From Coriobacteriia bacterium (GTDB lineage Bacteria; Actinomycetota; Coriobacteriia; Coriobacteriales; UMGS124), in the NCBI GenBank assembly GCA_018368455.1, contig JAGZEG010000004.1, positions 19,617 through 83,616 of the forward strand: 64,000 nucleotides of DNA, given 5' to 3'. Position numbers and translations under genes: made by a program. Positions within the stretch are counted from its first letter, which is position 1. Each line of letters opens with the position of its first letter. A model generated the notes under the pieces. It worked only from the letters and a program-made list of their open reading frames with translations. It was not told the DNA's origin and searched no databases. Below, piece by piece: positions 34,506 to 56,017 of the stretch.

Positions 34506-35471
34506 CTACTCCTCGTACAGATGGCATGCGACCGTGTGACCGGGGGCGAACTCGCGGATGGCGGGCTCGACGCGCGCGCAGACGTCCATGCGACGTGGGC
34601 ACCTCCCGCAGAAGCGGCAGCCGGGCGTGGGGTTCACGGGACTCGGAGCGTCGCCGCTCAGCACGATGCGCTCCCGTTCGTGTGCGAGCTTGGGGTCGGG
34701 GATGGGCGCGGCGGCGAGCAACGCGCGGGTGTAGGGGTGCAACGGCTCGCGGTAGAGCTCCTCGGCCGGCGCGTGCTCCACGAGCTTGCCCAGGTACATG
34801 ACGCCCACCTGGTCGGAAATCTGCTTGACGACAGCCAGGTCGTGCGCGATGAACAGCATCGTGAGCCCGCGCTCGCGCTGCAGTCGGATGAGCAGGTTCA
34901 CGATCTGCGCCTGCAGGGAGACGTCCAGCGCCGACACGGGCTCGTCACACAGCAGAAACTCCGGGCCCACCGACAGTGCCCGCGCGATGCCGATGCGCTG
35001 ACGCTGCCCGCCCGAGAACTCGTGCACGTTGCGCTCGGCGCACTCGGTACCCAAGCCCACCTGGTCGAGCAGGTTGAACACCATCGTGCGCTCCTCGGCC
35101 CGGCTGCGCGCCAGCTTGTGAATGCGGATGCCCTCGGCCACGATGGCGTAGACCTTCTGCTGTGGGTCGAGCGAGGCATAGGGGTCCTGGAACACCATCT
35201 GCGCCTGCCGCGTGAAGGCGAAGCGCTCGCGGCGCCCCATCGTGTGGACGTCGGCGCCGCGGAAGCGCACCTGCCCGTCCGTGCGGCCCAGCACGCCAAG
35301 GCACGTCTTGCCGCATGTCGTCTTGCCGCAGCCTGACTCGCCCACCAGGCCGAGCGTCTCGCCGCGCCGAATGGAAAACGACACGTCGTCGACGGCCTTG
35401 AGCAGCTGGCCTGCGCCAACGGGATAGTACTTCTTGAGGTGCGACACCTCGAGTTCCACGTCGCCGGCCAT
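34506..35471 (-). CDS. Oligopeptide/dipeptide ABC transporter ATP-binding protein (OppF/DppF-like)
   Basis: Walker A 'GESGCGKTT', signature 'FSGGQRQRIGIARAL', Walker B 'LLCDEPVSALD', and the C-terminal oligopeptide-transporter extension 'PLHPYTRALL...CRFCGRCP'. Confidence 0.9.
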   Translation of the reverse strand: MAGDVELEVSHLKKYYPVGAGQLLKAVDDVSFSIRRGETLGLVGESGCGKTTCGKTCLGVLGRTDGQVRFRGADVHTMGRRERFAFTRQAQMVFQDPYASLDPQQKVYAIVAEGIRIHKLARSRAEERTMVFNLLDQVGLGTECAERNVHEFSGGQRQRIGIARALSVGPEFLLCDEPVSALDVSLQAQIVNLLIRLQRERGLTMLFIAHDLAVVKQISDQVGVMYLGKLVEHAPAEELYREPLHPYTRALLAAAPIPDPKLAHERERIVLSGDAPSPVNPTPGCRFCGRCPRRMDVCARVEPAIREFAPGHTVACHLYEE

Positions 35472-36614
<1,143 letters not shown>

Positions 36615-37613
36615 CTACCTCGCCACCTTCGGCGCCAGCGCGCTGCGCAGCACGTCTCCCAGCAGGTTGAACGCCAGCACGGTGATCAGGATCATCAGTC
36701 CCGGGTACACGGCCAGCATCGGGTGGCTTAGGATCTGCGCCTGGGCACCCTGTAGCATGCTGCCCCACGACGCGTAGGGAATGGATACGCCCAGCCCCAG
36801 AAAGCTCAGCGACGACTCCGACAGGATGGCGCTGGCCACGCTCAGGCTTGCCGCGACGCTCACCGGCCCTAGGATGTTCGGCAGGATGTGCAGCACGGCC
36901 ATGCGTAGGTGTCCCGCGCCTAGCTGCCGCGTCGCCACCATGAAGTCGCGCTCCTTGAGCGAGAGCGTCTCGGCGCGGGTGATGCGGGCGACCGACGCCC
37001 ACCCGAACAGGCTGAGCACGGCGATGAGCGTTGGGATGCTCGGTCGCAGAAACGCGTTGAGAATGACCATGAGCAGCATGCTCGGCAGCGCGAGGAACAC
37101 GTCGGTGAAGCGCATGAGCAGCGTGTCGAGCTTGCCGCCCACATAGCCCGCCGCGATGCCGATGAGCGAGCCCAGGGCCACCGTCAGCAGCATGGCGCAG
37201 AAGCCGACGAGCAGCGAGATACGCCCGCCGTACAGCACACGCGTGAAGTAGTCGCGGCCGTACTCATCGGTGCCGAACCAGTGCGCCGCCGAGGGCCCGA
37301 GCAGCTTGGACTTGACGTCGAGCGCGTAGGGGTCGTAGGGCGACAGCGGCGCCAGCAGCGTCGCGATAATGACGACCAGCAGCAGGATCGTGCTGACGAG
37401 CGCGAGCTTGTTGGCGACGAGCTCGCGCAGGAACGTTCGCGCGAAGCCGATGGCCTTGGGAGGCAGTTGCGTGCGATCGCGCTTCTCGAGCCGCTCGAAC
37501 GCGCCGGCCTCGAACTCGAGCCGCGGCAGCGCCCGGCCCTGGGCAGCTGGCATCTCGGCCTCGTCCTCGGTGGCAACGCTTCCGGCCTCGATGACGTACC
37601 CAGTCCTAGCCAC
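36615..37613 (-). CDS. Peptide ABC transporter permease (DppC/OppC-like)
   Basis: Multi-TM protein with an N-terminal OppC-type region and the BPD-transporter motif 'ETLSLKERDFMVATRQLGAGHLRMAVLHILPN'. Confidence 0.9.
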   Translation of the reverse strand: MARTGYVIEAGSVATEDEAEMPAAQGRALPRLEFEAGAFERLEKRDRTQLPPKAIGFARTFLRELVANKLALVSTILLLVVIIATLLAPLSPYDPYALDVKSKLLGPSAAHWFGTDEYGRDYFTRVLYGGRISLLVGFCAMLLTVALGSLIGIAAGYVGGKLDTLLMRFTDVFLALPSMLLMVILNAFLRPSIPTLIAVLSLFGWASVARITRAETLSLKERDFMVATRQLGAGHLRMAVLHILPNILGPVSVAASLSVASAILSESSLSFLGLGVSIPYASWGSMLQGAQAQILSHPMLAVYPGLMILITVLAFNLLGDVLRSALAPKVAR

Positions 37614-38580
37614 GGTGGCCCCCCTTCTCGGCGACGAGCTTGATGCGCGGGTCGACGACGGCGTACAGCACGTCGGCCAGGAAGTTGCCCACGACGAGGA
37701 TCGTGCCCGACAGCATGATGTAGGCCATGATGACTGTGTAGTCGCGCGCCCCGATGGCGCTCATCGCCAGCGTGCCTACGCCGGGCCAGCCGAACACGGT
37801 CTCAATGATGAACGAGCCGCATACCAGCGATGCCAGGTTCATGCCCAGCAGTGTCACGATCGGCAGCAGCGTGTTCTTGAGCACGTGCTTGAACAGCACC
37901 TTCACTCGCGGCGTGCCTCGCGACTCCGACGCCAGCACGTACTCCTCGCCCAGCTGGCCTATCGTGTTGGCTCGGATGTAGCGGATGTAGACGGCCACCT
38001 CGCCCAGCGCCAGCGCCAGCGTCGGCATGATGAGGTGCCGCAGCGTGTCCAGGGGCCCCTCGGAGCCTACGGTGTGCATGCCCGAGGAGGGCAGCACGTG
38101 CAGCACGGCTGCGAACAGGATGATGAGCAGCATGCCGAACCAAAACGAGGGGATGGACATGCCGACGTAGGACACTCCGCTGATGATGGCGTCGGCCTTC
38201 GAGTTGCGCCGGTAGCCAGCCCACAGCCCCAGCGGGATGGCCAGCACGAGAGCCAGTCCTAGCGAGCTGCCCATGAGCAACAGCGTGGCGGGCAGGCGGT
38301 TGGCGAGAAGCGTTGCAACCGGCATGTCGTGATTCGTCGCCGAGACGCCGAGGTCTCCCTGTATCGCTTTGGATGCCCAGGCGAGGTACTGCTCGGGCAG
38401 GCTCTTATCGAGCCCGAGCGTCGCAATGACGGCAGAACGTTGCTCATCGGTCATGTCGGGCGTGATGTACATCTGCGAGATGTCGCCGGGCGCGAAGTAG
38501 ATGACCGCAAACGACAGAAACGAGATGAGCACGAGCACGACGGCGAGTTGGACGGCTTTCTTGACGACGTATCTCAGCAT
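37606..38580 (-). CDS. Peptide ABC transporter permease (DppB/OppB-like)
   Basis: 'MLRYVVKKAVQLAVVLVLISFLSFAVIYFAPGD' is the typical DppB N-terminus. 'SESRGTPRVKVLFKHVLKN' is the EAA-type loop. It overlaps the next gene by 8 nt. Confidence 0.9.
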   Translation of the reverse strand: MLRYVVKKAVQLAVVLVLISFLSFAVIYFAPGDISQMYITPDMTDEQRSAVIATLGLDKSLPEQYLAWASKAIQGDLGVSATNHDMPVATLLANRLPATLLLMGSSLGLALVLAIPLGLWAGYRRNSKADAIISGVSYVGMSIPSFWFGMLLIILFAAVLHVLPSSGMHTVGSEGPLDTLRHLIMPTLALALGEVAVYIRYIRANTIGQLGEEYVLASESRGTPRVKVLFKHVLKNTLLPIVTLLGMNLASLVCGSFIIETVFGWPGVGTLAMSAIGARDYTVIMAYIMLSGTILVVGNFLADVLYAVVDPRIKLVAEKGGHRG

Positions 38581-38652
38581 GGAGGGACTTTCTTTTGGGG
38601 GCGAGCCCTCCGCGTTTGCGCAGAGGGCCCGCCTGCGTTATGAGGCTCTCTC

Positions 38653-40293
38653 TTACGCCAGCTTGATGGCGGCGAACTGCGAGAACTCGGGGATGATCGG
38701 CGAGGCGTCCAGGCCGCTGACGTCCTTGCGCGACACCATGACGTAGTTCGTGTACGTCAGCGGGTACTCCCAGCACTCATCGAGGTAGCGCTGCTGGATC
38801 TCCTTCCACTGATCCTTGCGCGCCGCCTGGTCGGGGTTGGAGTTGGCGGCCTTGGTGAGCTCGCCCAGCTCATCGGAGAAGCCGGTCATGAAACGCGACG
38901 TGCCCGACGTGAGGTAGTTGTAGGCCTGGCGCGAGCTGATGCCGCGCTCGGAATCCCAGCCGTTGGAGCCCAGGTCCCACGTGTTGCCCTGGTCGGTGCC
39001 GTACGCGCCGTAGAAGAAGCGGTTGAAGAACGTTGTGGAGTCGAGGCCCTCGATGCTGAGGTTGACGCCGATGGCCTGGAGCTGCTGCTGCACGACGACA
39101 GCGACCTGCTCCATGTTCGGGCGGTCGGCGTTGAAGATGTACGTGAGCGTCTGACCGGCCAGGCCGCTGGACTCGGCGAGCTGCTTTGCCTGCTCGATGT
39201 CCTGCGTATAGCCGGGGCACTCCGGGTCGTAGTCGTACTGGTCGGGTGTCAGCGGGCTGTTGGCTGGCGTGGCCAGCTTGTCGGTGCCGTAGGCGAAGTC
39301 GACGATCTCCTGGCCGTTGAGTGCGAGGAACAGGGCCTTGCGTGCGTCCTCGCCCAGCGTGGACATGACGGGCCCCTGGGGGTTGAGCTGCAGGTAGTTG
39401 AGGCGCGCCTCGGAGACGGAGTACAGTGTGTACGTGGCCTCGTCGGCGGCGTACTTCTCCAGGTCCTCGGCCGTCGTGACGCGCATGTAGCTGACCTCGC
39501 CGTTCTCAAAGGCGAGCTGCTTGGTGCTGCCCGAGCCGATCGTCTTGGCTACGAGCTTCTTAATGGAGAGCTCGCCGCCGTAGTAGTCGGCGCGCGGGGC
39601 GTAGACGATGCTGTCCTCGTTGATCTGCTCGACGGTGAATGCGCCGCTCGTCACCATGTCGGTCGTGAAGAAGTAGCCGGCGTTATCCGCGACCTTCGAG
39701 GGGTCGTTGTCAAAGGCGTGAGCGGGCAGCGGCGTCCAATTGCACATCGTGTAGATGTAGGTGACGTAGACGGAGGGCAGCACGACCTCAAGCGTCTTGT
39801 CGTCCTTCTTCGTGAACGTGACGTCCTCGCCGTTGACCTGTGTCGTGCTCGTCTTGCCGTCGTACTTCAGGCCGTTGTACTCGATCGTGAACAGAATGTC
39901 GTCGACGGTGATGGGCTCGCCATCGCTCCAGTTTGCGTTGTCGCGGATGTGGATCGTGTAGGTGAGGCCGTCCTCGGAAATCTCGACGCCATCAGCGAGG
40001 TGGTACTCGATCTTGTCGCCGTCGAGCTCCTGGAACAGGCACTCGTAGACGGGACGCACGACGATGGTCTGATCGTCGTTGCCGCCGGAGGAGGGCTGCA
40101 GCGAGGAGGGCATGAAGCTGATGGCCATCGTGAACGTGCCGTCGGACTCGTCGGCGCGTGCCACCTGTGGCGCGAGGCCGGCGGGCAGCACGGAGGCCAG
40201 GCCGAGGCCGAGTGTGGCGGCCAGCGTGCCCTTTACGAGCGAGCGGCGGGAGAGGGGAGTGGTGAGCAAAGGCTGCATGAGGAATCCTTTCAT
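38653..40293 (-). CDS. ABC transporter substrate-binding protein, family 5 (peptide type), Tat-type signal
   Basis: 'MKGFLMQPLLTTPLSRRSLVKGTLAATLGLGLASVLPAGLAPQVARA' followed by an SBP_bac_5-like body. The start is placed at 40293; the upstream part of the track ORF (to 40626) is the leader RNA region. Confidence 0.85.
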   Translation of the reverse strand: MKGFLMQPLLTTPLSRRSLVKGTLAATLGLGLASVLPAGLAPQVARADESDGTFTMAISFMPSSLQPSSGGNDDQTIVVRPVYECLFQELDGDKIEYHLADGVEISEDGLTYTIHIRDNANWSDGEPITVDDILFTIEYNGLKYDGKTSTTQVNGEDVTFTKKDDKTLEVVLPSVYVTYIYTMCNWTPLPAHAFDNDPSKVADNAGYFFTTDMVTSGAFTVEQINEDSIVYAPRADYYGGELSIKKLVAKTIGSGSTKQLAFENGEVSYMRVTTAEDLEKYAADEATYTLYSVSEARLNYLQLNPQGPVMSTLGEDARKALFLALNGQEIVDFAYGTDKLATPANSPLTPDQYDYDPECPGYTQDIEQAKQLAESSGLAGQTLTYIFNADRPNMEQVAVVVQQQLQAIGVNLSIEGLDSTTFFNRFFYGAYGTDQGNTWDLGSNGWDSERGISSRQAYNYLTSGTSRFMTGFSDELGELTKAANSNPDQAARKDQWKEIQQRYLDECWEYPLTYTNYVMVSRKDVSGLDASPIIPEFSQFAAIKLA

Positions 40294-40434
40294 GTGGGCT
40301 GGGCGACCCGTTGGGGCCGCAGGGAGGTTGAGTCGTGGCGTGCCCGAACCGGACGCGCGTGGCTGGTGCTCAGGGCGATGCCCCACGTGCGGCGGGAGCG
40401 CTTTTCCCTGCAGGCTGCCCTGGAATCGCGGCAT

Positions 40435-40645
40435 GAAAAAAGCCCTGGCCGTGGGCGCCCTCTGCGCTTCCACCTGCCAAGACCCTCGTTTGCTCTTCTG
40501 CTGCCACGCCTCTCGCCGCACGGGCGAGGATGGCTGTTCTGTTGGACCCGCGACCCTGCACACGGCAGGTCGTTGCACTACATGATCCCCGTATCCCCAT
40601 GTCTTCTCGCACCTCCCTTCCCTCATTCTTGGCTCGGATTCATCG
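40435..40645 (-). ncRNA. Structured 5' leader with intrinsic terminator (candidate riboswitch/attenuator), copy 1; paralog of 48819..49040
   Basis: RNA sense: ...UCAUGUAG-UGCA-ACGACCUGCCGUGUGCAGGG-U-CGCGGGU...CAGAAGAG...GCAGAGGGCGCCCACGGCCAGGGC-UUUUUU. A 40-nt block (40545-40584) is 35/40 identical to 48891-48930. The terminator hairpin is at approx 40442-40486 and the U-run at 40436-40441. Confidence 0.5.
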
Positions 40646-40652
40646 CTGCGAC

Positions 40653-40681
40653 ATAGTGCCGATTGCCAGCTTGCTTGTCAA
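40653..40681 (-). promoter_or_regulatory. Sigma70-like promoter for leader 1 / peptide ABC operon
   Basis: Minus-strand TTGACA (40676-40681), 17 nt, CACTAT (40653-40658). It lies downstream of the stop of the desulfurase-family gene (40757). Confidence 0.45.
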
Positions 40682-40756
40682 GCTCGGACGTCGCGCCTCT
40701 GCTTGTCGAGTGCGGGCCGCTTCTTGCCCCAGAATCAGCCCGCACTCGATGAAGCT

Positions 40757-41908
40757 CTATCCTGCCAGCTCGCCCGTGATCTCGGTCATTGCGGCGATGC
40801 CAGCGTCGATCTCGTCTTCGGTGTTGAGGTGCGAGAAGCTGAAGCGCACGGCTCCCTGGCTCACGGTGCCCAGCGCGCGGTGCATGAGCGGCGCGCAGTG
40901 CGCTCCGGAGCGCGTGCAGATGCCGTAGTGCTCGGCCAGCAGGCTCGTGATGCGCCCCGAGTCCACCTCGCCCACGTTGAGCGCCACGACGCCCGTGCGC
41001 GCTACGCCGCCGTGACCGCCGTACACGCGCACGCCCGGCAGGTTCGCGACGCCGGTCTCGAAGCGCTCTGTGAGCTCGGCCACGCGTGCGGCCACGTGCT
41101 CCACGCCGACGCGCTGCAGGTAGTCGATGCCGGCTGCGAGTCCCGCCAGTCCGTGCGCGTTGAGCGTGCCGGCCTCGAGGCTCTCAGGCATCGCAAGCGG
41201 CTGACGCTCGTCGTAGCTGTGCACGCCGGTGCCGCCCTCGAGCAGTGGGCGCACCTCGACGCCTTCCGCCACGCAGAGCCCGCCTGTGCCCTGCGGCCCC
41301 AGCAGACTCTTATGTCCGGTGAAGCACAGCACGTCGACGCCGAGGGCAGCCATGTCGACGGGCAGGGCGCCGGCCGTCTGCGCCGCGTCGAGCACGAACA
41401 GCGCCCCGACCTCGTGGGCCATGTTCGCCATACGCGCCACGTCGTACACGTCGCCCGTGAGGTTGGAGGCGTGCGTCGCCACGACGAGGCGCGGCCGTCC
41501 GGTGCGCAGCAGCTCGCCATAGGCGTCGAAGTCGAGCGAGGCATCGGGGCGGATGGGCGCTACGTCCACGGCGCAGCCTCGCTCGTCGCGCGCGCGGAAC
41601 AGCGGGCGCAGCACCGAGTTGTGGGAGGCAGCCGTTGTGAGCGCCCGGTCGCCGTCGCGCAGCAGGCCCGCGATGGCGACGTTGAGCGCTTCGGTGACGT
41701 TGTAGCCAAAGGCCACGCGCGAGGGGGAGGGGGCGCCCAGCAGCTCGGCAACCTTGCGCCGCGCGTCAAACACCGCCATGTCGGCCGAGATGGCGGCGTC
41801 GTGCGCCCCGCGCCCCACGTTGCCAAACGTCGTGAGCGCGCGCACGACGGCGTCGACGACCTCCTGCGGGCGGGCCATGGCCGTGGCGGCGTTGTCGAAG
41901 TAGATCAT
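40757..41908 (-). CDS. Class V aminotransferase-fold, cysteine desulfurase family protein (NifS/SufS-like)
   Basis: 'MIYFDNAATA', 'ATHASNLTG', PLP-lysine region 'FTGHKSLLGPQGTGGL', and active-site Cys loop 'TRSGAHCAP'. Confidence 0.85.
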   Translation of the reverse strand: MIYFDNAATAMARPQEVVDAVVRALTTFGNVGRGAHDAAISADMAVFDARRKVAELLGAPSPSRVAFGYNVTEALNVAIAGLLRDGDRALTTAASHNSVLRPLFRARDERGCAVDVAPIRPDASLDFDAYGELLRTGRPRLVVATHASNLTGDVYDVARMANMAHEVGALFVLDAAQTAGALPVDMAALGVDVLCFTGHKSLLGPQGTGGLCVAEGVEVRPLLEGGTGVHSYDERQPLAMPESLEAGTLNAHGLAGLAAGIDYLQRVGVEHVAARVAELTERFETGVANLPGVRVYGGHGGVARTGVVALNVGEVDSGRITSLLAEHYGICTRSGAHCAPLMHRALGTVSQGAVRFSFSHLNTEDEIDAGIAAMTEITGELAG

Positions 41909-41989
41909 GGGACGGGTATCCTCTCGGGATTATGTGGCACGGACGCTCGTGCGGGCGGGCCGCGCGGACAAGGTGGGACGGCCGGTGGC

Positions 41990-42226
41990 TTACAGCTCGA
42001 TGTCGAACACGCCCTCGTGGGTGATGCCGTGTGTTTCAAGCGCTCTTACGACGACGTCGCGCTCGGCGGCCTCGGCGCGCCACGCGAGCCCACAGCCTGC
42101 GGAGATGGCCGACGGAATCGGGATGAGCCGCCCGGGGATGCCCAGGCGCTTGGCCGCGTCCTCCATCCCGCATGCATCCGGCGTATTCGCAAACGTGACC
42201 ACGACGCACGGCCGCTTTTCGAGCAT
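41990..42226 (-). CDS. DUF3343-domain protein (putative sulfur/selenium carrier-like)
   Basis: 78 aa. 'VVTFANTPDACGMEDAAKRLGIPGRLIPIPSAISAGCGLAW' matches the DUF3343 pattern (beta-alpha fold with 'IP.P..IS..CG'). RBS 'gaaggagag'. It lies directly upstream of the desulfurase-family gene. Confidence 0.7.
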   Translation of the reverse strand: MLEKRPCVVVTFANTPDACGMEDAAKRLGIPGRLIPIPSAISAGCGLAWRAEAAERDVVVRALETHGITHEGVFDIEL

Positions 42227-42282
42227 GGAACTCTCCTTCGTTAACGTCGCGAGCCGCTCGGGCCGGTGTGCCGTAAATATAC

Positions 42283-42358
42283 GGCAATCTGCTCTAGCGC
42301 CCTACGGTGCAGCAGATGCAAGGCGCGCCGAGGCGAAGCGTATTCGACATACGTGAGC
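42283..42358 (-). repeat. Copy of a dispersed approx 75-nt hairpin plus GCGCCTTGCATCTG repeat (see 62900..63080)
   Basis: The minus-strand sequence ACGTATgtcgaATACGc-ttcgcctcg-GCGCGCCTTGCATCTGctGCAC aligns with CGCGTATttcaATACGCG-tcgggccgcg-GCGCCTTGCATCTGacGCAC at 62902-62948. It lies in the 168-nt gap between the double-cubane reductase gene and the DUF3343 gene. Confidence 0.45.
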
Positions 42359-42394
42359 CGAAGCGCAACGCCGCAGATGATGTGCCGTAGGCCG

Positions 42395-43597
42395 CTAGAG
42401 CGTCTCGATAAAGGCGGCGATGCGCGTCTCGATTTGCCCCGAGTCGCCCATGGAGTAGTCGGTCTCGAGCTTCATGTACGGGACGCCGTGCTCCTCCATG
42501 ACGCGGCCCATGCGCGCGGCCTCGATGTTGAACGTGTGGCATGCCTGCAGCACGGCATCGATGACGCCGTCGACATGGTACTTCTCCACCATGGCCAGCG
42601 TGTTCTCCATGCGGCCCTCGTTGGGCGTCATGACGGAGCAGTTGATGTTCAGGTAGCGCTCTGCGATGGCGCGCAGGATGTCGGGCGCCTCTTCGTCGAC
42701 GAGCAGCTTGTTCGTGCGCTCGCCGGAGCAGTCGTCCAGGCAGACGATGACGCCGCCGTTGGCCTCGATGACCTTGCCCACCTTGTTGATGAGGCCGCCG
42801 GAGGGGCAGCCCGTCAGCAGGATGCGCTTTGCGCTGGGAGAGACCTCGCTTTTGCCCTCAGCAGCCTGTGCGGCACGCTGGTTGACGAGCTGCTCGACGC
42901 GGTCGGCGAAGTTGTGCACGTCGAAGTTGAACGACCCGGCTAGAAGCGAGCTCATCATCTCGGTGCCGCGCACGGCCGGCGGCTCAGAGGTCTGCAGGTT
43001 GTAGAGCTTGATGAGGGCGCGGCGCAGACGGTTGCGCGTGCGCGCGGCCTCGCGCAGGTCGTCATCGGTGATCGTGATTCCGTAGAAGTCCTCGAGATAC
43101 CCCTTGAACCGCTTGAGCTCCTCGTACCACTCGTCGTGCTCGTAGGAGCGCGAGCGCGAGTTGGGCAGGTGCAGCACGTACGTGTTCTTGAGATCACCGA
43201 GCAGCTCGTACATCTTCTTTTTGCCGTCGCACGTCGTCTCGCCCACGATCATGTCGGCGAAGTACGTATAGGGGCACTTCTCCGTAAGCGCGAAGCCGTA
43301 CGTCGACTTGATGAGCGGGCAGAGGTTCTTGGGCAGCACGGTCTCGGCGGCGGGAATCGTCTCGTCACTCATGCCGCACAGGCCGACGGCCGACACGTGG
43401 GCGGCGTCGAGGATCTCGAGCGGGGTGAACGAGCACAGCACGCCGGCAAGGCGCCCTCCGCTCTCCTTGAACTGCTTGACGCGCATGAAGCCGGCCTTGC
43501 GCTGCTCGTTGAACTCCTCGAACGTGCGGGGCAGCGGCTCAAGCTCCTCGGTTGAACTCTTCTGAACTTCGGGTTCAATGGTCGTTTCGGCGCTCAT
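42395..43597 (-). CDS. Double-cubane-cluster-containing anaerobic reductase (2-hydroxyacyl-CoA dehydratase/BcrBC-superfamily, YjiM-like)
   Basis: 400 aa. '[24 protein letters not shown]', '[11 protein letters not shown]', '[13 protein letters not shown]', 'LLTGCPSGG', '[10 protein letters not shown]' and '[11 protein letters not shown]' give the multi-Cys pattern of the single-subunit HgdB-like family. It is adjacent to its activase. Confidence 0.8.
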
Positions 43598-43678
43598 ATT
43601 GGCGTTCCCTCTCTTTTTTCCTATGGTTCGACGGGGTTGCGTGCCTGTTCAGCGCGTCCGGCCCCGCGTTCGTTTCTC

Positions 43679-44512
43679 TTACAGGTGGGCTGCCGAGATG
43701 GCTGCCCCGATGGCACCGGCATAGCGCGCTTGCGGGCGTGTCACCACCTCGTGACCGAGATGTGCGCCGAGCTGGGCGACAAAGTAATCGTTGTCGCACA
43801 GGCCGCCCGTCAGGAAGTACGAACCCGCCGCGTCGCCGCTGACCTGCCCTACGAGCGCGGCGACCTTCTTGACGACGCTGCCGATGATGCCGTTGGCGAT
43901 GTTCTCGCGCGGCTCTCCCTTGCCGACGAGCGAGATGACCTCGCTCTCGGCGAACACGGTGCACATCGTCGAGATCGTTGTGGGCTGGCCGGCGCGCGCA
44001 AGGCGTGACAGCTCCTCCTGGCTGACGCCGAGGCGGTTGGCCATGATCTCGAGGAAGCGCCCCGTGCCGGCAGCGCACTTATCGTTCATGACGAACTTCT
44101 TTACGTTGCCGCCGGCCAGGTGCATGACCTTCGTGTCCTGTCCGCCAACGTCGACAACGACGCCATCGGGCCCGAACAGATATGCCGCACCGCGCCCGTG
44201 GCACGTGATCTCCGTGATGGCCTTGTCGGCATAGGGCACGGCGATGCGGCCGTATCCCGTGGCGACGCATGCGAAGCTTCCCTTGGGATAGCCCGCCTCT
44301 TCGAGCATTCCCAGGGCCCGCTCGGCGGCATCGACGCTGCTGTACCCCGTGGGTGCGAGCAGCGTGCGCTCGAGTGCGAGCGAGCCGTCTTTCGCAGCGG
44401 TCCTCGCCGCCGCGGCTTCGTCTCCAGCGAAGGCCGTGACTGCCTCGGCAGGCAGTCCCATAACGGCGATCTTCGTTGCGGTCGAGCCGATGTCAACGCC
44501 TACGTAGTGCAT
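43679..44512 (-). CDS. BadF/BadG/BcrA/BcrD-type ATPase: acyl-CoA dehydratase/double-cubane reductase activase (YjiL-like)
   Basis: 'MHYVGVDIGSTATKIAVMG' (ASKHA phosphate-1), 'VVVDVGGQDTKV', and the cluster-bridging Cys motif 'NDKCAAGTGRFLE'. Confidence 0.85.
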   Translation of the reverse strand: MHYVGVDIGSTATKIAVMGLPAEAVTAFAGDEAAAARTAAKDGSLALERTLLAPTGYSSVDAAERALGMLEEAGYPKGSFACVATGYGRIAVPYADKAITEITCHGRGAAYLFGPDGVVVDVGGQDTKVMHLAGGNVKKFVMNDKCAAGTGRFLEIMANRLGVSQEELSRLARAGQPTTISTMCTVFAESEVISLVGKGEPRENIANGIIGSVVKKVAALVGQVSGDAAGSYFLTGGLCDNDYFVAQLGAHLGHEVVTRPQARYAGAIGAAISAAHL

Positions 44513-44557
44513 GGTTCTCCTTGCTGTTCTCCCCCTGGGCGTTCGCGCGCGCCTGTC

Positions 44558-45775
44558 CTACAGCGTATGCACTGCCACCGTGAGCCGGTCGAGCGCCTCG
44601 CGCAGCACATCCGTGGGGCAGGCGATGTTTATGCGTTCGAAGCCGGCGCCGCCCGTTCCGAACGCGGCGCCTTCGTCTCCGAACAGGTGCGCCCTCGTGT
44701 GCAGGAATGTTTTGAGCGTGTCTGCGTCCATGTCGAAAGCGCGCATGTCAAGCCACTGCAGGTACGTCCCTTCAAGCGGCATGACCTTGATCTGGGGTAG
44801 CTCGCGTGCCACATAGTCTTCGACAAAGCGGCGGTTGCCGTCGAGCACCTCGAGCAGCTCGTCGAGCCAGTTCTCGCACTCGTTGTATGCGCAGGCGCAC
44901 ACCGGGTATGCAAACGCGTTGAGGCTGAACGGGCCGCCGCGCCTGAACCCGAGCCGCTTGAACTTTGTTCGTACTTCCTCATCGGGAATGAAGATGTTCG
45001 AGCACTCGAGCCCGGCTAGGTTGAACGTCTTGGACGGGGCGGTGCACACGGCGATGTGACCGAGTTCGTCGTCTGGAATGACGCGTGCCAGCGTCGTGTG
45101 CGTGTGTCCGGGCATGATCAGGTCGTTGTGGATCTCGTCGCAGACGATGAACACGCCGTGGGCCAGACAGATCTCGGCGCAGCGGCGCAGCTCGCCGGCC
45201 GTCCACACACGGCCGGCGGGGTTGTGCGGGCTGCACAGCAGGATCATCTTTGTCGCAGGGTCGGCGGCCTTGCGCTCAAGGTCGTCGAAGTCCATCTCGT
45301 AGTGGGCCTGCGGCGTGCCGTCGCCCACAAGCCGCAGCGGATTTTCGACAAGCGTGCGGCCGGCGCTTTGGACGGCGCTCTTGAACGGGAAGTAGACCGG
45401 CGGCTGAATGATGACGCCGTCGCCGGGCTCTGTCAGCGCCTCGACAAAGCGGTAGAGCGCCGGCACGACGCCCGGGCACGTCGCGATCCAGTCGCGCTCG
45501 GGCGCCCACTTGTGGCGGCGCTCCTGCCAGCCGATGACCGCTTCATAGTAGGCGTCAGTGGGTCCGGTGTAGCCGAGAATGGCCTCGTCGGCGATGCGAT
45601 GCAAACACGTGGCGATCTCGGGCTGCTTGACGAACTCCATGTCAGCTACGGACAGCGGCACGACGTCGGCAGGGACATCGGGGCAGTCTTTCAACATCCC
45701 GTCCCATTTGGACGAGCCAGTGCCGGCGCGATTGACGCGCGTCGTAAAGTCGTACCGCATAGCATTGCGTCCCAT
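44558..45775 (-). CDS. PLP-dependent C-S beta-lyase of the MalY/PatB family (cystathionine beta-lyase-like)
   Basis: 'YDFTTRVNRAGTGSSKWDG', 'LLCSPHNPAGRVW', 'VCDEIHNDL', PLP-Lys 'TAPSKTFNLAGL', 'GTGGAGFERINIA'. RBS 'aggagg'. 12 nt after the upstream permease. Confidence 0.85.
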   Translation of the reverse strand: MGRNAMRYDFTTRVNRAGTGSSKWDGMLKDCPDVPADVVPLSVADMEFVKQPEIATCLHRIADEAILGYTGPTDAYYEAVIGWQERRHKWAPERDWIATCPGVVPALYRFVEALTEPGDGVIIQPPVYFPFKSAVQSAGRTLVENPLRLVGDGTPQAHYEMDFDDLERKAADPATKMILLCSPHNPAGRVWTAGELRRCAEICLAHGVFIVCDEIHNDLIMPGHTHTTLARVIPDDELGHIAVCTAPSKTFNLAGLECSNIFIPDEEVRTKFKRLGFRRGGPFSLNAFAYPVCACAYNECENWLDELLEVLDGNRRFVEDYVARELPQIKVMPLEGTYLQWLDMRAFDMDADTLKTFLHTRAHLFGDEGAAFGTGGAGFERINIACPTDVLREALDRLTVAVHTL

Positions 45776-45787
45776 AAGGGGCGCCTC

Positions 45788-46504
45788 CTATCCTTTGCGA
45801 GGCTGCAGCGCCCGATATCGTCCAGCGCGCAGCTCGATGACGTGGAACACGCGGTTGAACGCGAAGCTCAGCACCTCGTAGATGATGGTGACGAGCAGGT
45901 AGGCTTCGAGGTAGGCGTAACTCTGGTTTGCCTCGAGCACGCTTGTCGCCATGATCTCGTGGACGCCGACGAAGTACGCCAGCGACGTGCCGTGCAACAG
46001 GCCCACGAACAGGCCGTTGAGGTTGGGCAGCGCCGCCACGATGGCCTGGGGCAGCACGATGCGCCTCATGGCTTGGCCGTGCGTCATGCCACACGCCAGC
46101 GCCGCCTCCATCTGCGTCGCGTCCACCGAGGCGATGGCCGAGCGCAGCACCTCGCACGAGTACGCCGCCTGGTTGAGCACGAACGTCAGCACGGCGAACA
46201 CGACGGGCGGCACCGCGGCGACGTTGGCCTCGATCCCGGCGGACAGCAGTGCGTTGTAGATGACGACCGGCATGAAGTAGTACATGACGTAGAGCAGCAC
46301 CACTTCGGGCACGGAGCGCATCATGGACACAAACACGGCGACGAGCTGGTTGAGGACGGGGATGCGCTTGAGCCGGGCCTGGGCGAGCGCGAAGCCGAGC
46401 AGCCAGCCGAGTGGGGCCGAGGCGAACACCATGGCCAGCGTCAGCGGCAGCGCGCTGAGGACCGCGGGGGCCGCTTGGAGCAGGAAATCGACGTCGAAGA
46501 TCAT
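45788..46504 (-). CDS. Amino-acid ABC transporter permease (His/Glu/Gln/Arg/opine family)
   Basis: Polytopic, with conserved loop 'EVLRSAIASVDATQMEAALACGMTHGQAMRRIVLPQA'. Confidence 0.85.
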   Translation of the reverse strand: MIFDVDFLLQAAPAVLSALPLTLAMVFASAPLGWLLGFALAQARLKRIPVLNQLVAVFVSMMRSVPEVVLLYVMYYFMPVVIYNALLSAGIEANVAAVPPVVFAVLTFVLNQAAYSCEVLRSAIASVDATQMEAALACGMTHGQAMRRIVLPQAIVAALPNLNGLFVGLLHGTSLAYFVGVHEIMATSVLEANQSYAYLEAYLLVTIIYEVLSFAFNRVFHVIELRAGRYRALQPRKG

Positions 46505-46517
46505 CGCGGCACCCCCC

Positions 46518-47225
46518 CTACGCCGTTGCCCGGCGACGCCCGCGCGTCGTCGTGCGCTCGAGGCCCATGAACGCGAGCATGAGCACGACGCACACCACCC
46601 AGTAGATGATGGCGACGGAGACGTAGAGCTCGAGGCGATAGGCGCCGTAGTTGGCGGCGGCTATGACGTTTGCGCGCCCCATCATGTCGATGACGCCGAT
46701 GGAGAACGCCAGTGACGTGCTCTTGAACAGCGAGATGACGAGGTTGCCGAACAGCGGGATGGCCGTGGCGACGGCCTGGGGCAGCACGATGCGGCGCACG
46801 GCCTGCGCCTGCGTCATGCCGCAGGCCAGGGCCGCCTCCGTCTGAACGCGCGGCACGGCGAGAAACGACGAGCGCATCATCTCGCCCATGTCGGCGCTGG
46901 CGATGAGCGAGAGCGCCGCCACGATGAAGTACACCTTGTTCGCCGCCGCGATGTCTATTCCCGCCGTCGCTTTGAGCACCTGCGGAAGCGCGAAGTACAG
47001 CAGGAATATCATCACGAGCGACGGGATGCCGCGCATGAGCGACACCCAGGTGCGAGCGATGACGTGCGCCCAGCGCTTCGAGCCGAGCTGCGCCATGGCG
47101 ACGAGCAAGCCAAGGGCCATGGCGATGAGCAGCGACGTCACCATGATGAGCAGCGTCAGGGGAAACGCTTGGAGCACCTTGAGTATGAACTCGGGGATTC
47201 TCTCCGGGAATACCAGGTAAGTCAT
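46518..47225 (-). CDS. Amino-acid ABC transporter permease (His/Glu/Gln/Arg/opine family)
   Basis: 'EMMRSSFLAVPRVQTEAALACGMTQAQAVRRIVLPQA'. The start is placed at 'MTYLVFPERIPEF' (47225); the track ORF extends to 47297. Confidence 0.85.
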   Translation of the reverse strand: MTYLVFPERIPEFILKVLQAFPLTLLIMVTSLLIAMALGLLVAMAQLGSKRWAHVIARTWVSLMRGIPSLVMIFLLYFALPQVLKATAGIDIAAANKVYFIVAALSLIASADMGEMMRSSFLAVPRVQTEAALACGMTQAQAVRRIVLPQAVATAIPLFGNLVISLFKSTSLAFSIGVIDMMGRANVIAAANYGAYRLELYVSVAIIYWVVCVVLMLAFMGLERTTTRGRRRATA

Positions 47226-47376
47226 CGCGTGCAGAACCTCTCGCTCTTCGGGGACGCTTGCGGGGCGGGCGTGTCGGGCGCGGCGCCGGCGGGACAATGG
47301 TACCGCGTGTTGGCGCCGCGCCCGAGGTGCTCAGGCAAACGGGGGCGAAGAAACCCGCTCGGGCGCCCCGGTGCTC

Positions 47377-48363
47377 CTACTTGCCAGCCTCCTTGGCGTC
47401 CGACGCAGCCGAGCTGTCCTTCTGGGCGCTCACGTCGACGAGGACGCCGTCATCGGAGACGGAGTAGTACGTGTCGCCCTTGCCGACGATGATGTCGGCG
47501 CCCTCCTTGAGGAAGTCAGCGTTCTCGGCGAACACGTCGCCGCCGAGCCACTTCTTGCCCAGCTCGCCGAGGCTGCCGTCAGACTTTGCCTCCCTGAGCG
47601 CCGTCGTGAGGTCGGCCGCCAGACCCTCCATGCCGGGGCGCAGCATGAAGAAGTCTAGGCCGTACGTGACGGTCTCCGTCAGTGCGAGGTCGGTGCCGGC
47701 TCCCTGCTGAATGGAGTCAAAGCTCGAGACGAGCGTGTAGCAGGCATCGGCCTGACCGTTGGCGACGGCGCGGAACCAGCTCGCCACATCACCGACGTTC
47801 TCGGCTTCGACGAGCTCGATGGCCTCGTCGGGATGCTCGTCGTTGTACTTCACGAGGGCCTGGTAGTAGGCGTTCGTCGGGTTGACGAGCAGCTTCTTGC
47901 CAGCCAGGCCATGGACGTCCGTGATGCCGGAGTCCTTGCGCACCGCCGCTGCCATGGGCCCGATGCAGTAGGGCTCCTCGGGGAAGATGAACTTCTCGAG
48001 GCGCTCGGGCGTGCGGGCGATGGCGCACGACACGAGGTCGCATGCGCCCGACTGCAGCGAGGCGACCATGCTCTGGAACTGCATGCCGTCGAACTGGAAC
48101 TGGTACTTTCCGCCGAGCTTCTGTTCGCAGAGCTTCAGGACATCGATGTCATAGCCCTGCAGCTCGTTGTCCTCGTTGACGAAGCAGTACGGCTTCGTCT
48201 GGTTCGAGGTGATGATCTTTACGACCTGCGGGTTGTCGGCGGCAAAGGCACGGCACGTCAGAGGGGCAGCCGTGCTGGCGATCGCGAGGCCGGCGGCCAG
48301 GCAGAAGAAGCTGCGGCGGGAGATGCCACGCGTGCTGGACGCGGTGGAGTGGGCGCTGTTCAT
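47377..48363 (-). CDS. Amino-acid ABC transporter substrate-binding protein (family 3) with Tat-like signal and C-terminal extension
   Basis: 'SRRSFFCLAAGLAIASTAAPLTCRAFA', then an SBP_bac_3-like body ('KPYCFVNEDNELQGYDIDVLK...'). It is a paralog of 51134..52198, including the shared tail 'GADIIVGKGDTYYSVSDDGVLVDVS'. Confidence 0.85.
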   Translation of the reverse strand: MNSAHSTASSTRGISRRSFFCLAAGLAIASTAAPLTCRAFAADNPQVVKIITSNQTKPYCFVNEDNELQGYDIDVLKLCEQKLGGKYQFQFDGMQFQSMVASLQSGACDLVSCAIARTPERLEKFIFPEEPYCIGPMAAAVRKDSGITDVHGLAGKKLLVNPTNAYYQALVKYNDEHPDEAIELVEAENVGDVASWFRAVANGQADACYTLVSSFDSIQQGAGTDLALTETVTYGLDFFMLRPGMEGLAADLTTALREAKSDGSLGELGKKWLGGDVFAENADFLKEGADIIVGKGDTYYSVSDDGVLVDVSAQKDSSAASDAKEAGK

Positions 48364-48434
48364 GGGATGTTCTTCTTTCTGTGATGAGGCGAGGAGCTGG
48401 ATTTTTGTGGCTCCTTCACCGCGCGAGATGGGGG

Positions 48435-48662
48435 TTACTGAATGCCTGCGACAGACGTGGGCTCGGGATCTGCCTGCTGAGTGTCGGCGGGGATGGGACG
48501 GCGGGGCGTCGGGCGATTGGTCGTCTCGCGTTCGGGGCGCAGGGCGACGAGGCCGCCAACTAGGCTGATGCCGGCAATGCCCAGGGCGATGCCGACGAGG
48601 TCGTTACGCGACGCTGCGCCGAAGCGGGCAGGGCCGTGCGAAGAGGGGGTGTTCACACTCAC
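48435..48662 (-). CDS. Possible small membrane protein (75 aa) between leader 2 and the binding-protein gene
   Basis: A GTG-initiated ORF with one hydrophobic helix ('LVGIALGIAGISLVGGLVAL'). No recognisable RBS or family, so it could be non-coding. Confidence 0.25.
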   Translation of the reverse strand: MSVNTPSSHGPARFGAASRNDLVGIALGIAGISLVGGLVALRPERETTNRPTPRRPIPADTQQADPEPTSVAGIQ

Positions 48663-48818
48663 GATGTGACCTGCGTTTCTCGAAGACGCGCAACAAGGCG
48701 CATGCCGATGCGGGCTGCCCAGACCGGGCGGGTGTTTCGCTCACTCAGGGCGAGGCGCCGCGAGCCGGATGGGGCGACACCGTCGCGGGCCGAGAGCGGT
48801 CGGCCTGTTTTTGCGCAT

Positions 48819-49040
48819 AAAAAAAGCCCTTGCCGCGCCCTCTGTTGGCGCCGCCCGGGACCTCTTCTGTGCTGGCTGCTCTTCCGTTGTACCCGCGTCC
48901 CTGCACACGGCAGGTCGTCTCTCTACATGACGATCGTCCCTGCCCCTTGCTCCATGGCATCATGTGAACACCCCCTCTCTCCGTAACGTGGGCGCATCGC
49001 TGATCTGCGTACTGCGCGCGATGCCCCTTCTCCATCTGCT
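48819..49040 (-). ncRNA. Structured 5' leader with intrinsic terminator (candidate riboswitch/attenuator), copy 2
   Basis: RNA sense: ...GGAGAGAGGGGGUGUUCACAUG...UCAUGUAG-AGAG-ACGACCUGCCGUGUGCAGGG-A-CGCGGGU...CAGAAGAG...CCCGGGCGGCGCC-AACAGA-GGGCGCGGCAAGGGC-UUUUUUU. The terminator stem is at approx 48826-48862 and the U-run at 48819-48825. Confidence 0.5.
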
Positions 49041-49047
49041 ATCGCGC

Positions 49048-49077
49048 ATCTTGCGACAGGCGTGGAGGCGCCGTCAA
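49048..49077 (-). promoter_or_regulatory. Sigma70-like promoter for leader 2 / amino-acid ABC-lyase-reductase operon
   Basis: Minus-strand TTGACG (49072-49077), 18 nt, CAAGAT (49048-49053). Confidence 0.35.
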
Positions 49078-51133: not shown

Positions 51134-52198
51134 TTAGTCGCGAGAGGCATCCTTTGTCGAACTTGCAGAGTTCGCCTTTGCGTCCTTGGACGAGCTCGCG
51201 GAGCCTACCTTTGCGTCGGCGTCCGAGCTCGCCGCGCTCAGCACGCCGTCCTCGACGACGGAGTACACGGACGACCCACCGTCGATCATGATGTCGGCAC
51301 CGATGGGGAAGTCCGGATAGGCGGCGAATACGTCTTCGCCGAACCACTGCTGCGCCACCTTGCCGAGCGAGCCGTCCTCGCGGGCGGTCGCTAGGGCGGC
51401 TGACACGTCGGCGCACAGCTCCTCGTCGCCGACGCGCATCAGGTAGTACAGCGCGTTGATCATGACAGGGCCCACGGCCACGAGGTCAGTGCCGGCGCCC
51501 TTCTGAGCGTCGTCGAAGCCGCCCTTGAAGATGAGGATGCCGTCGCACTGGCCGTTCTCGACAGCGCGGAACAGGTCGGCGTCGCTGACGATGGGATCCT
51601 GGCTGTTGACGGTGATCTGCGCGTCGGGATGGTCGGCGTTGTACTTGAGGATGGCCTGGTACTCGGCGAGCGTCGCGTTGCAGCGCAGCGTCTTGCCCGC
51701 CATGTCAGCCAGGCTCTCGATGCCCGAGTCCTTGCGCACGGCGAGGACCATGGGGGCGAGGCCGTAGGGCTGGTCGGGCACGAGGTACTTCTCGAGGCGC
51801 TCCTCGGTACGGGAGAGCGCGCAGCTCGCCATGTCGCTCGAGCCGGACTGCAGCGAGGCGATCATCGTATCGAACGGCATGCCCTCGAACGAGAACGCGT
51901 ACTTGCCGTCGAGCTTCTCCTCGACGAGCTTGAGGCTGTCGATGTCGTAGCCGGCCAGTTCGCCGTCTTCGTTGATGAAGCAGTAGGGGCGCGTCGAGTT
52001 GTTGCTGGAGATCTTGACGGCGCAGGCCTCTCCCTGCGCGGGGGCATCCGATCCGGCGTCGCTGGCTGCCGTGTCGGTGTCAGCTCCGCAGCCAGCGAGC
52101 ACGAGGCTCAGGGCACCGGCGCCGGCAACTGCGCCGCCTAGCCCGATGAATGATCGGCGTGAGATGCCCGCTGCGGGACGTATGTCGTGCTGTGCCAT
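51134..52198 (-). CDS. Orphan amino-acid-type substrate-binding lipoprotein (family 3), paralog of 47377..48363
   Basis: 'ISRRSFIGLGGAVAGAGALSLVLAGCG' (Tat plus lipobox). The body is collinear with the 47377 protein ('RPYCFINEDGELAGYDIDSLK', 'ASLQSGSSDMASCAL'). Low-complexity Ser/Ala/Lys/Asp tail. RBS 'gggagagg' fits the ATG at 52198. Confidence 0.8.
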   Translation of the reverse strand: MAQHDIRPAAGISRRSFIGLGGAVAGAGALSLVLAGCGADTDTAASDAGSDAPAQGEACAVKISSNNSTRPYCFINEDGELAGYDIDSLKLVEEKLDGKYAFSFEGMPFDTMIASLQSGSSDMASCALSRTEERLEKYLVPDQPYGLAPMVLAVRKDSGIESLADMAGKTLRCNATLAEYQAILKYNADHPDAQITVNSQDPIVSDADLFRAVENGQCDGILIFKGGFDDAQKGAGTDLVAVGPVMINALYYLMRVGDEELCADVSAALATAREDGSLGKVAQQWFGEDVFAAYPDFPIGADIMIDGGSSVYSVVEDGVLSAASSDADAKVGSASSSKDAKANSASSTKDASRD

Positions 52199-55571: not shown

Positions 55572-55679
55572 CGTCGCCCTCGGCCTCGTGGCCGGCGCGT
55601 GGTGTGACCCTGTGCGGGGTCCAAGTTGTCTCCCGTCTGCTACTATTACCAGGTTCCCCCGGGTCTGTGGTTGCGGGCG

Positions 55680-55930
55680 TCCCCATGGGGTCGCCCTAGT
55701 CCATGGCAGACGAGGCCAAAGGGATCCACGTAAGCGTCGGCGTGCGCGCGGGCGCGAGCATGGCTCGTCCTAGGGGTAAGTCGTGCCGCCCGTTGATAGG
55801 GACAAACCTGTCCCGCGGGCGAGAGGGCCAGTAGTGAGGGCCGCTGCGGCGGCGTGAGCGACCGTCCCAGCACGCGAGTGTGGGGCCAAATACCAGGTCA
55901 GCCGGGGGAACACCGTTCGTTTTGACAGGA
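55680..55930 (+). ncRNA. Structured intergenic RNA candidate in raiA-motif genomic context
   Basis: A 446-nt non-coding gap after comFC contains nested helices: GCCCTAG(55693)..CTAGGG(55770), GACGAGGCC..GGCTCGTC, hairpin GGGACAaaccTGTCCC, and GGCC..GGCC. The raiA motif is reported downstream of comFC and upstream of raiA/hpf in Actinobacteria and Firmicutes. I could not check the consensus from memory. Confidence 0.4.
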
Positions 55931-56017
55931 GGCCGCACGCAGCGGCCCGTATGTCGGCGCAAGCGACGCCCGTACCAGCCGAGCGCGCTCGCCGCGAGCC
56001 AGAAGAGAGCTGACGCC

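Follow-up and report, generated by a model that had tools for sequence, protein, structure and literature searches.

The stretch of Coriobacteriia DNA analysed here, 64,000 nucleotides in full length and referred to below as the window, carries on its minus strand two copies of a leader element, each lying upstream of an operon that encodes an ATP-binding cassette (ABC) importer. On comparative evidence this leader is a real, conserved and hitherto undescribed cis-regulatory element, and, with moderate confidence, we interpret each copy as a pyrBI-type transcription attenuator that depends on the ribosome and has a translated upstream open reading frame (uORF) at its centre. Copy 2, for which a candidate riboswitch or attenuator had originally been predicted, extends from about position 49077 down to 48717, and copy 1 from about 40681 down to 40342. 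Their recognisable parts are listed below.

49048..49077, minus strand: promoter-like site of copy 2, TTGACG (49077-49072), 18-nt spacer, CAAGAT (49053-49048)
48969..48981, minus strand: Shine-Dalgarno sequence of copy 2, GAGAGGGGGUG, 7 nt upstream of the uORF start codon
48745..48963, minus strand: uORF of copy 2, 72 codons plus UGA, encoding MMPWSKGQGRSSCRETTCRVQGRGYNGRAAS...GKGFFYA...ARGASP* and holding both the core hairpin and the terminator
48899..48914, minus strand: invariant core of copy 2, CCUGCCGUGUGCAGGG, with the hairpin CCUGC-CGUGU-GCAGG at 48914-48900
48819..48864, minus strand: predicted intrinsic terminator of copy 2, hairpin plus U7 (48825-48819), inside the uORF; -23.2 kcal/mol, z = -3.3
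48717..48762, minus strand: distal module of copy 2, R-G-A-S-P codons (48762-48748), UGA (48747-48745), 15-nt spacer, hairpin (48729-48717)
40653..40681, minus strand: promoter-like site of copy 1, TTGACA-17-CACTAT, read from the sequence
40617-40610, minus strand: Shine-Dalgarno sequence of copy 1, GGGAGGUG
40370..40600, minus strand: uORF of copy 1, 76 codons plus UGA, encoding MGIRGSCSATTCRVQGRGSN...GQGFFHAA...ARGASP*
40554..40569, minus strand: invariant core of copy 1, CCUGCCGUGUGCAGGG
40436..40487, minus strand: predicted intrinsic terminator of copy 1, hairpin plus U6 (40441-40436), inside the uORF; -28.2 kcal/mol, z = -3.8
40342..40387, minus strand: distal module of copy 1, R-G-A-S-P codons, UGA (40372-40370), 15-nt spacer, hairpin GUCC-GGUUC-GGGC (40354-40342)

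Homologues were sought by taking the substrate-binding proteins encoded downstream of both copies, collecting contigs that encode homologues of them and searching the DNA upstream, and additionally with a peptide profile. Nine distinct full members, the two window copies included, were recovered from about five Coriobacteriia genomes or metagenome-assembled genomes (MAGs), and the counts given below refer to these nine unless stated otherwise. The presence of homologues in several other genomes does not bear out a simple recent duplication.

win_c2 and win_c1: copies 2 and 1 of the window, with identical copies in L012-L015 (MAG GCA_018368595.1)
L001: from an ENA assembly, orthologue of copy 2
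L004 and L031: two copies in the species of one ENA assembly
L006 and L032: two copies in MAG GCA_964619775.1
L027+ and L027-: two copies in divergent orientation on one 901-nt contig

The leader reading frame and its terminator

The paralogous relationship of the two copies, already proposed in the original prediction, is evident from the 20-mer ACGACCTGCCGTGTGCAGGG, which occurs at exactly two sites in the window, 48899-48918 and 40554-40573, with no additional sites there at up to three mismatches (chance expectation 0.02), and from the surrounding block of about 45 nt, in which approximately 40 of 45 positions are identical in a pairwise alignment. The 16-mer CCUGCCGUGUGCAGGG is the invariant core common to both window copies, and a strong terminator hairpin with a U-run lies further 3'. 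The motifs CAGAAGAG and CAGAGGGCGC, which had been pointed out as shared, are indeed common to both window copies but are not family-wide: CAGAGGGCGC recurs only in the close orthologue L031, while a looser GAAGAG tract is present in several other members. The promoter TTGACG-18-CAAGAT was located where it had been described, upstream of copy 2, and the relatives L001, L004 and L027 likewise have a TTGACG -35 element, with CATGAT at 17-18 nt. A generic sigma-70 promoter scan flags neither leader promoter-like site, because the -10 hexamers CAAGAT and CACTAT match TATAAT weakly.

The roughly 220 nt that follow the promoter of copy 2 had been regarded as free of any convincing open reading frame. 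This view proved wrong, since a conserved frame led by a Shine-Dalgarno sequence holds both the core and the terminator. What had been noticed as purine-rich 5' segments of the window copies are Shine-Dalgarno sequences located 7-9 nt before an ATG, and all nine members have a GGAGG-like Shine-Dalgarno sequence 6-10 nt before an ATG or GTG in frame with the core. From this start the uORF is open for 63-92 codons and continues through the terminator. Across the nine members, frame 0 contains no stop codons, while the other two frames contain 14 and 11; by shuffling, a stop-free frame would be expected with a probability of 0.09-0.19 per sequence.

Length variation within the leader also follows the frame. 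The distance from the start codon to the core is a multiple of three in all members, and that from the core to the U-run in eight of nine, the exception being L032 (97 nt). In the seven members with a distal UGA, the core-to-UGA distances are 165, 138, 192, 195, 198, 153 and 174 nt, all of them multiples of three. These seven different lengths require at least six independent length changes, which without selection would all have remained in frame with a probability of about (1/3)^6, or roughly 0.001; this estimate is our own calculation from the measured distances. The closest pairs of members differ by insertions or deletions of 3, 30 and 54 nt. Between copy 1 and its orthologue L031 we found synonymous changes in MG.RGS and ARGASP together with a 3-nt in-frame indel, and the N-terminal M-G-x-R-x-S also differs synonymously among win_c1, L031 and L006.

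Three blocks of the encoded peptide are conserved: (S)C-x-x-T-T-C-R-(V/A)-Q-G-R-G-x-N-(G/R)-x-A, which covers the core; G-x-G-F-F-(Y/H)-A, which corresponds to the 3' arm of the terminator and the U-run, the latter encoding Phe-Phe in seven of nine copies; and the C-terminal (R)G(A/S/P)SP, present in seven of nine members. The first block contains two conserved Cys codons five codons apart, and there is no run of regulatory codons. In copy 2 the first of them (UGU) occupies 48927-48925 and the core hairpin overlaps the second. The spacing of the first Cys codon (48925-48927 in copy 2) from the core hairpin is fixed at 10 nt, except in L032, where it is 7 nt. The middle of the peptide is unconserved, the uORF peptides have no Pfam match, and a leader-peptide profile retrieved only two proteins, P0017 and P0018, among 5.8 billion proteins and 1.84 billion cluster representatives. 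The GC content at third codon positions (GC3) is 0.58-0.71 in the uORF (0.69 in copy 2) versus 0.8-0.93 in the neighbouring genes. The low GC3, the unconserved middle, the lack of a Pfam match and the existence of only two related proteins therefore speak against an ordinary gene and fit a regulatory uORF. The Shine-Dalgarno sequences, the stop-free frame, the in-frame length changes and the synonymous differences, for their part, lead us to conclude from the comparative data that the uORF frame is maintained by selection and translated.

The GC-rich hairpin followed by U7 that had been described in copy 2 stood up to analysis, and every one of the nine members has a hairpin abutting a U-run, with folding energies of -20.6 to -34.6 kcal/mol and z-scores of -3.0 to -7.8 relative to shuffled sequences. 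The stem sequences differ among the members, and RNAalifold shows compensatory pairs. A simple terminator scanner detects neither leader terminator, because the stems contain internal loops. As judged from folding and comparison, the terminator is real and is situated within the uORF. Immediately downstream of the leader terminator of copy 2, a terminator-like hairpin with a T-run is also present on the opposite strand (48788-48801, plus strand), within a variable 30-nt insertion of the copy 2 uORF.

Apart from the terminator, little RNA structure is shared by the family. The hairpin CCUGC-cgugu-GCAGG, originally noted in the conserved block, was recovered as a 5-bp hairpin CCUGC-CGUGY-GCAGG in which four of five pairs are invariant across the nine sequences and the fifth is broken once, in L032; its pairs being nearly invariant, it is neither supported nor contradicted by covariation. 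The upstream helix UCGUC/GACGA, which had been thought to covary, did not hold: it is 54.5% paired across the nine homologues and has zero compensatory changes. RNAalifold on the nine leaders returned only the core hairpin, the terminator, two isolated pairs, and a pairing between the Shine-Dalgarno region and the U-run, which we treat as compositional. An antiterminator was looked for by pairing the 5' arm of the terminator with upstream sequence (RNAduplex), and in all nine members the result was no better than with shuffled arms; single-sequence folds of truncated leaders gave no consistent alternative structure. Rfam scans of both leaders yielded nothing at gathering thresholds and only two chance-level matches at E <= 10, in line with the expectation that they belong to no known class.

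A terminator embedded in a conserved, Shine-Dalgarno-led frame, the failure to find an antiterminator, and the upkeep of the frame beyond the terminator therefore argue for control by the ribosome instead of an RNA switch. The original alternatives of riboswitch or attenuator can accordingly be narrowed down: a conserved cis-regulatory leader with a terminator was confirmed, but neither a multi-helix aptamer nor an antiterminator was found, and the element fits ribosome-mediated (leader-peptide) attenuation, of which it would be a new form, better than it fits a riboswitch. At the level of sequence analysis, its parts, the maintained frame, the terminators and the pattern of conservation can be regarded as established.

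The distal module, the downstream operons and the distribution of the family

The end of the uORF forms a second conserved unit. In all seven members that have it, the UGA is followed at exactly 15 nt by a mini-hairpin of the form G[C/U]CC-[G/A]GU[C/U]N-GGGC (GCCC-GGUCU-GGGC in copy 2), while the sequence of the spacer between them is unconserved. Of the five codons before the UGA, all five third positions vary versus two of ten first or second positions, a third-position excess with p ~0.007 in Fisher's exact test (our own count). The loop of the core hairpin, CGUGY, likewise has G-U at positions 2-3, echoing the UGA-plus-hairpin module, and the equivalent holds for copy 1. A partial member, L034 (1865-1940), which is a relative of the copy 1 operon, has only the distal module: the core hairpin and the terminator are lost, and what is kept is a 15-codon mini-uORF, MVNVCAVPIPLGASP-UGA, ending in LGASP, with a G-U-loop hairpin 12 nt beyond the UGA. 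This module can thus exist on its own.

Between the UGA and the main start codon, the RNA of the seven members that could be read to the main gene has a C content of 0.31-0.46 and a G content of 0.23-0.31, compared with about 0.29 C and 0.37 G in the uORF. This C-rich, G-poor composition is compatible with a rut site. In copy 2 the spacer is longer, as follows.

48364..48716, minus strand: spacer between the distal module of copy 2 and the gene of the substrate-binding protein (SBP), C-rich and G-poor, with about 300 nt extra in this organism

The extra segment of about 300 nt is absent from the orthologues L001 and L004 and holds a called 75-codon ORF (48662-48435) with one predicted membrane helix and a weak DUF6479 match. 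At the start of this ORF lies the complement (48642-48657) of the Shine-Dalgarno region of copy 2 (48963-48978, AGAGGGGGUGUUCACA); the two form a perfect 16-nt inverted repeat about 305 nt apart, and the complement could sequester the ribosome-binding site of the uORF.

The operons that follow the two leaders are both on the minus strand.

40757..48363, minus strand: copy 2 operon, eight genes
34506..40278, minus strand: copy 1 operon, an SBP_bac_5 (Opp/Nik-like) protein, Opp-type permeases and further same-strand genes

The copy 2 operon begins with a cystine-like SBP_bac_3 protein and two permeases, continues with a PatB-family C-S lyase (398 bits, cut-off 340), an acyl-CoA dehydratase activase, a double-cubane-cluster reductase (483 bits, cut-off 350) and a Se/S carrier (42226-41990), and ends with a cysteine-desulfurase family protein that is also similar to the selenocysteine lyase SclA. 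The cystine-like SBP, the PatB lyase, the Se/S carrier and the desulfurase-family protein agree with the earlier guess of a sulfur-related function. An inverted repeat at 40706-40749, located after the cysteine-desulfurase family gene and before the promoter of copy 1, has 19-nt arms (89% complementary), a 6-nt loop and no U-run after it; this repeat may mark the end of the upstream operon.

In well-sampled genomes there are two copies of the leader, one before an SBP_bac_3 ABC operon and the other before an SBP_bac_5 ABC operon. The contexts of the members are thus a cystine-like ABC operon, an Opp/Nik-like ABC operon or, for one copy, an ABC ATPase gene, and one context is cut off. The copy preceding the ABC ATPase gene is L027+, which has no in-frame SP-UGA and whose uORF overlaps the start of that gene by 14 nt; on its contig (L027, 1-901) the two members stand back to back, with their promoters in a shared middle of about 300 nt.

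Wider searches added little to this set. Scanning 185,579 GTDB representative genomes for the exact core plus AAGAGC returned one true locus, already known, and four chance matches, including one sequence similar to RNase P RNA. A codon-wobble pattern applied to JGI metagenomes gave chance matches in coding regions only, and no additional copies emerged when the window and 22 loci were searched with a covariance model of the core. Weak matches to this model (~10-12 bits) were seen at window positions 51721-51745 (minus strand), L001 159-183, L004 101-125, L020 2984-3008 and L021 2924-2948; three or more of these fall within SBP_bac_3 genes, and the matches are probably a coding coincidence. 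Literature searches found the core sequence in no paper and nothing on leader peptides in Coriobacteriia. As far as the sequence searches go, the family is rare, narrowly distributed and restricted to a few gut Coriobacteriia.

Elsewhere in the window, a full-length raiA motif RNA was identified at 55654-55910 (plus strand; RF03072, 151.7 bits, gathering threshold 101.3), which is the sole Rfam match in the window at gathering thresholds and overlaps the start of an ORF at 55880-56962. The window also contains three paralogous FMN_bind/FAD_binding_2 flavoprotein reductases, at 2577-4550 (plus), 16844-19144 (plus) and 19257-21212 (minus), and a LuxR-type regulator at 15059-16765 (plus). No tRNA genes were found in it.

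Proposed mechanism and alternative explanations

If the leader acts as a ribosome-dependent attenuator, transcription would start at the conserved promoter and the strong Shine-Dalgarno sequence would load ribosomes onto the uORF of 63-92 codons. The ribosome would meet the two Cys codons and the CCUGC-CGUGY-GCAGG hairpin, then synthesise the peptide ...C-R-(V/A)-Q-G-R-G-x-N..., and then run through the terminator. A ribosome close behind RNA polymerase would block the terminator hairpin, leading to transcription of the transporter operon, and a delayed ribosome would allow the terminator to form; the delay could occur at the Cys codons, at the hairpin or via the nascent peptide. Moreover, a second checkpoint resembling that of TnaC could exist at the end of the uORF, where slow release at Pro-UGA could shield the downstream C-rich RNA from Rho. 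In this scheme we infer the coupling of ribosome and polymerase, the stalling, the role of Rho and the identity of the effector. The gene content points to cysteine or cystine, or to a related compound of sulfur (or selenium), as the effector; the signal is probably how much cysteine, or a sulfur compound related to it, is available, and our guess is a sulfur amino acid.

Several observations weigh against this mechanism. All the support for it is comparative, and the nine copies are a small sample from a narrow phylogenetic range, with counts that are not fully independent. Over the uORF as a whole, substitutions are scarcely enriched at third positions, and, in view of this weak codon-position bias, the coding evidence therefore consists of frame maintenance and the conserved end blocks. 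Neither a U-rich nor a consensus pause site was found, and the alignment contains no U-rich tract upstream of the terminator. Two members, L006 and L027+, are without the SP-UGA module. The predicted sign of the response is also awkward, since stalling upon scarcity of Cys-tRNA would lower the expression of a cystine-type importer, which makes sense only if the operon is a substrate-induced utilisation system, like tnaCAB. Finally, the core codons ACG ACC UGC CGU GUG CAG have zero synonymous changes in 7-9 sequences, and in the eight codons after the core the third position varies in six (our own count); the lack of synonymous change in the core therefore indicates selection on the nucleotide sequence, RNA or DNA, beyond the peptide alone.

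This last feature is what one would expect if the leader were a riboswitch or a protein-binding RNA, in which the invariant hairpin and its flanks bind a small molecule or a regulator that controls the terminator, the reading frame being incidental or secondary. The 16-18-nt core is conserved in nucleotide sequence without synonymous variation even in the divergent L006, one of the few changes within it is non-synonymous and located in the loop (U to C, Val to Ala), and a terminator follows in every member; such an RNA would be new, given that no known family matches. However, the sole structure available for binding is one 5-bp hairpin without covariation, RNAalifold reveals no aptamer-like architecture, and antiterminator or anti-antiterminator pairing is no better than chance. 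Nor would RNA binding explain the Shine-Dalgarno sequence and start codon, the frame kept over at least six length changes, or the synonymous pattern in RGASP, and we consider it unlikely.

Slightly less probable in our judgement is a selenium-responsive leader, in which the UGA of the uORF and the hairpin 15 nt further on would constitute a SelB site similar to a selenocysteine insertion sequence (SECIS), with selenocysteine (Sec) decoding or SelB binding setting expression. The geometry of the distal module invites this comparison: the stop is UGA in eight of eight copies of the module, the 15-nt hairpin spacing is fixed despite the variable spacer sequence, and loop positions 2-3 are invariantly G-U (GGUCU, GGUCC, GGUUC, AGUUC, GGUCG). 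The UGA-to-loop distance is 19 nt (16 in L034), compared with 18 nt and a GGUC loop in the SECIS of E. coli fdhF, the sequence of which was confirmed in 5,419 genomes and then folded. Published criteria for bacterial SECIS elements specify a loop of 3-9 nt, a stem of at least 4 bp, G in the first two loop positions, a UGA-loop distance of 16-37 nt and a minimum free energy (MFE) of -7.5 or lower (PMC13188914). Formally, the module conforms to these published values, with a 5-nt loop, a stem of 4-5 bp and a context MFE of -9.6 to -24.5, but the limits are loose and easily satisfied by a GC-rich hairpin. In L004 and L031, similarly to fdhF, a hairpin of about 40 nt begins 2-3 nt past the UGA, and the operon encodes a Se_S_carrier and an SclA-like protein. 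On the other hand, the Rfam SECIS models give no match, the peptide is not conserved past the UGA (L034 has a UAG one codon later), and a SECIS would not be expected to preserve the five residues ahead of the UGA as amino acids. The readthrough frame bears no consistent relation to the main start codon either. Fusion of the uORF to the SBP gene by UGA readthrough was considered and discarded, being in frame only in L001 and otherwise inconsistent. A possible link to SelD was rejected as well, since the gene with an AIRS domain that neighbours the L006 operon encodes HypE.

The two ideas could also be combined into a ribosome sensor with two checkpoints, in which the hairpin and peptide would set the terminator, and the Pro-UGA with its hairpin of SECIS geometry would serve as a recoding or stalling site responsive to SelB and Sec-tRNA(Sec). 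We regard this as improbable; if true, it would make selenocysteine decoding a regulatory input for an operon with a Sec-lyase-like enzyme and a Se/S carrier.

It is less credible still that the uORF is a small protein gene whose Arg/Gly-rich product of 63-92 residues is functional, with the terminator merely reducing downstream expression. The conserved frame, the conserved N- and C-terminal peptide motifs and the annotation of the ORF by gene callers in two assemblies (P0017 and P0018) would suit such a gene, but its codon-position base composition looks non-coding, the central part of the product lacks conservation and differs in length between members, and no family match exists, P0017 and P0018 being the only relatives among the cluster representatives. 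Furthermore, if a structural gene contained a strong intrinsic terminator, most of its transcripts would end prematurely. Just as implausible is a DNA operator, with the palindrome CCTGC-N5-GCAGG as a transcription factor site blocking elongation or initiation: the core is an inverted repeat with both arms invariant, but its non-palindromic spacer CGTGT is conserved as well as the arms, the site lies at a variable 31-86 nt downstream of the Shine-Dalgarno sequence in a transcribed and translated region, and no regulator gene is a conserved neighbour.

Comparison with known systems

To our knowledge, there are very few cases of attenuators with a reading frame that passes through their own terminator, pyrBI being the textbook one, and we know of none described in Coriobacteriia, a gut lineage in which gene regulation is almost unstudied. 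The combination of such a frame with an invariant in-frame hairpin, a conserved nascent peptide and a Pro-UGA followed by a hairpin at a fixed distance is unusual, and makes the leader a compact candidate for a new ribosome-based metabolite sensor governing two importer operons and enzymes for the mobilisation of cysteine and sulfur (or selenium). It also calls for caution in the search for riboswitches, since conserved "non-coding" leaders of GC-rich genomes can conceal a frame-conserved uORF.

Bacterial SECIS elements, such as that of E. coli fdhF or the SECIS-like site of the selAB leader, share with the distal module an in-frame UGA and a hairpin with a small G-U apical loop. They differ in that the leader has a regulatory uORF instead of an enzyme gene, a minimal stem of only 4-5 bp, no conserved coding after the UGA and no Rfam SECIS match. 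The trp, his, leu and polycysteine attenuators resemble the leader in having a short translated leader with relevant codons (here two Cys codons) and a terminator, followed by genes of the corresponding amino-acid class. Unlike in attenuators of the trp and his type, there is no run of regulatory codons, the leader ORF continues past the terminator, and no 2:3 antiterminator was found.

The end of the uORF is reminiscent of tnaC of the tnaCAB operon. TnaC ends in Pro-UGA, and arrest at this point blocks Rho (PMC8450073). Similarly, the uORF ends in Pro-UGA with C-terminal residues conserved as peptide, in seven of nine members and in the mini-uORF of L034, and a C-rich, G-poor untranslated spacer precedes an operon with a transporter and a pyridoxal phosphate (PLP)-dependent lyase. 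However, the peptides have no sequence similarity, and the Trp12/Asp16 motif of TnaC (W12, D16, P24 spacing) is absent. The uORF is also three to four times longer and, unlike TnaC, has an internal intrinsic terminator and a fixed-distance hairpin after the stop.

With E. coli pyrBI, the leader shares a Shine-Dalgarno-led ORF that extends through a rho-independent terminator, here in all nine members. PyrBI senses UTP by polymerase pausing at U-rich sites and controls pyrimidine genes, whereas the leader described here has no evident U-rich pause tract and would control ABC importers and sulfur-handling enzymes; the conserved peptide, the invariant hairpin and the conserved C-terminal module of the uORF have no counterparts in pyrBI. 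The 135-bp leader ORF of pyrBI encloses the terminator, which is suppressed solely when a ribosome trails the polymerase at short distance (PMC4824070). An antiterminator RNA is not required there, since the ribosome near the polymerase itself suppresses the hairpin (PMC4824070), and the leaders of the two importer operons could be controlled in a similar manner.

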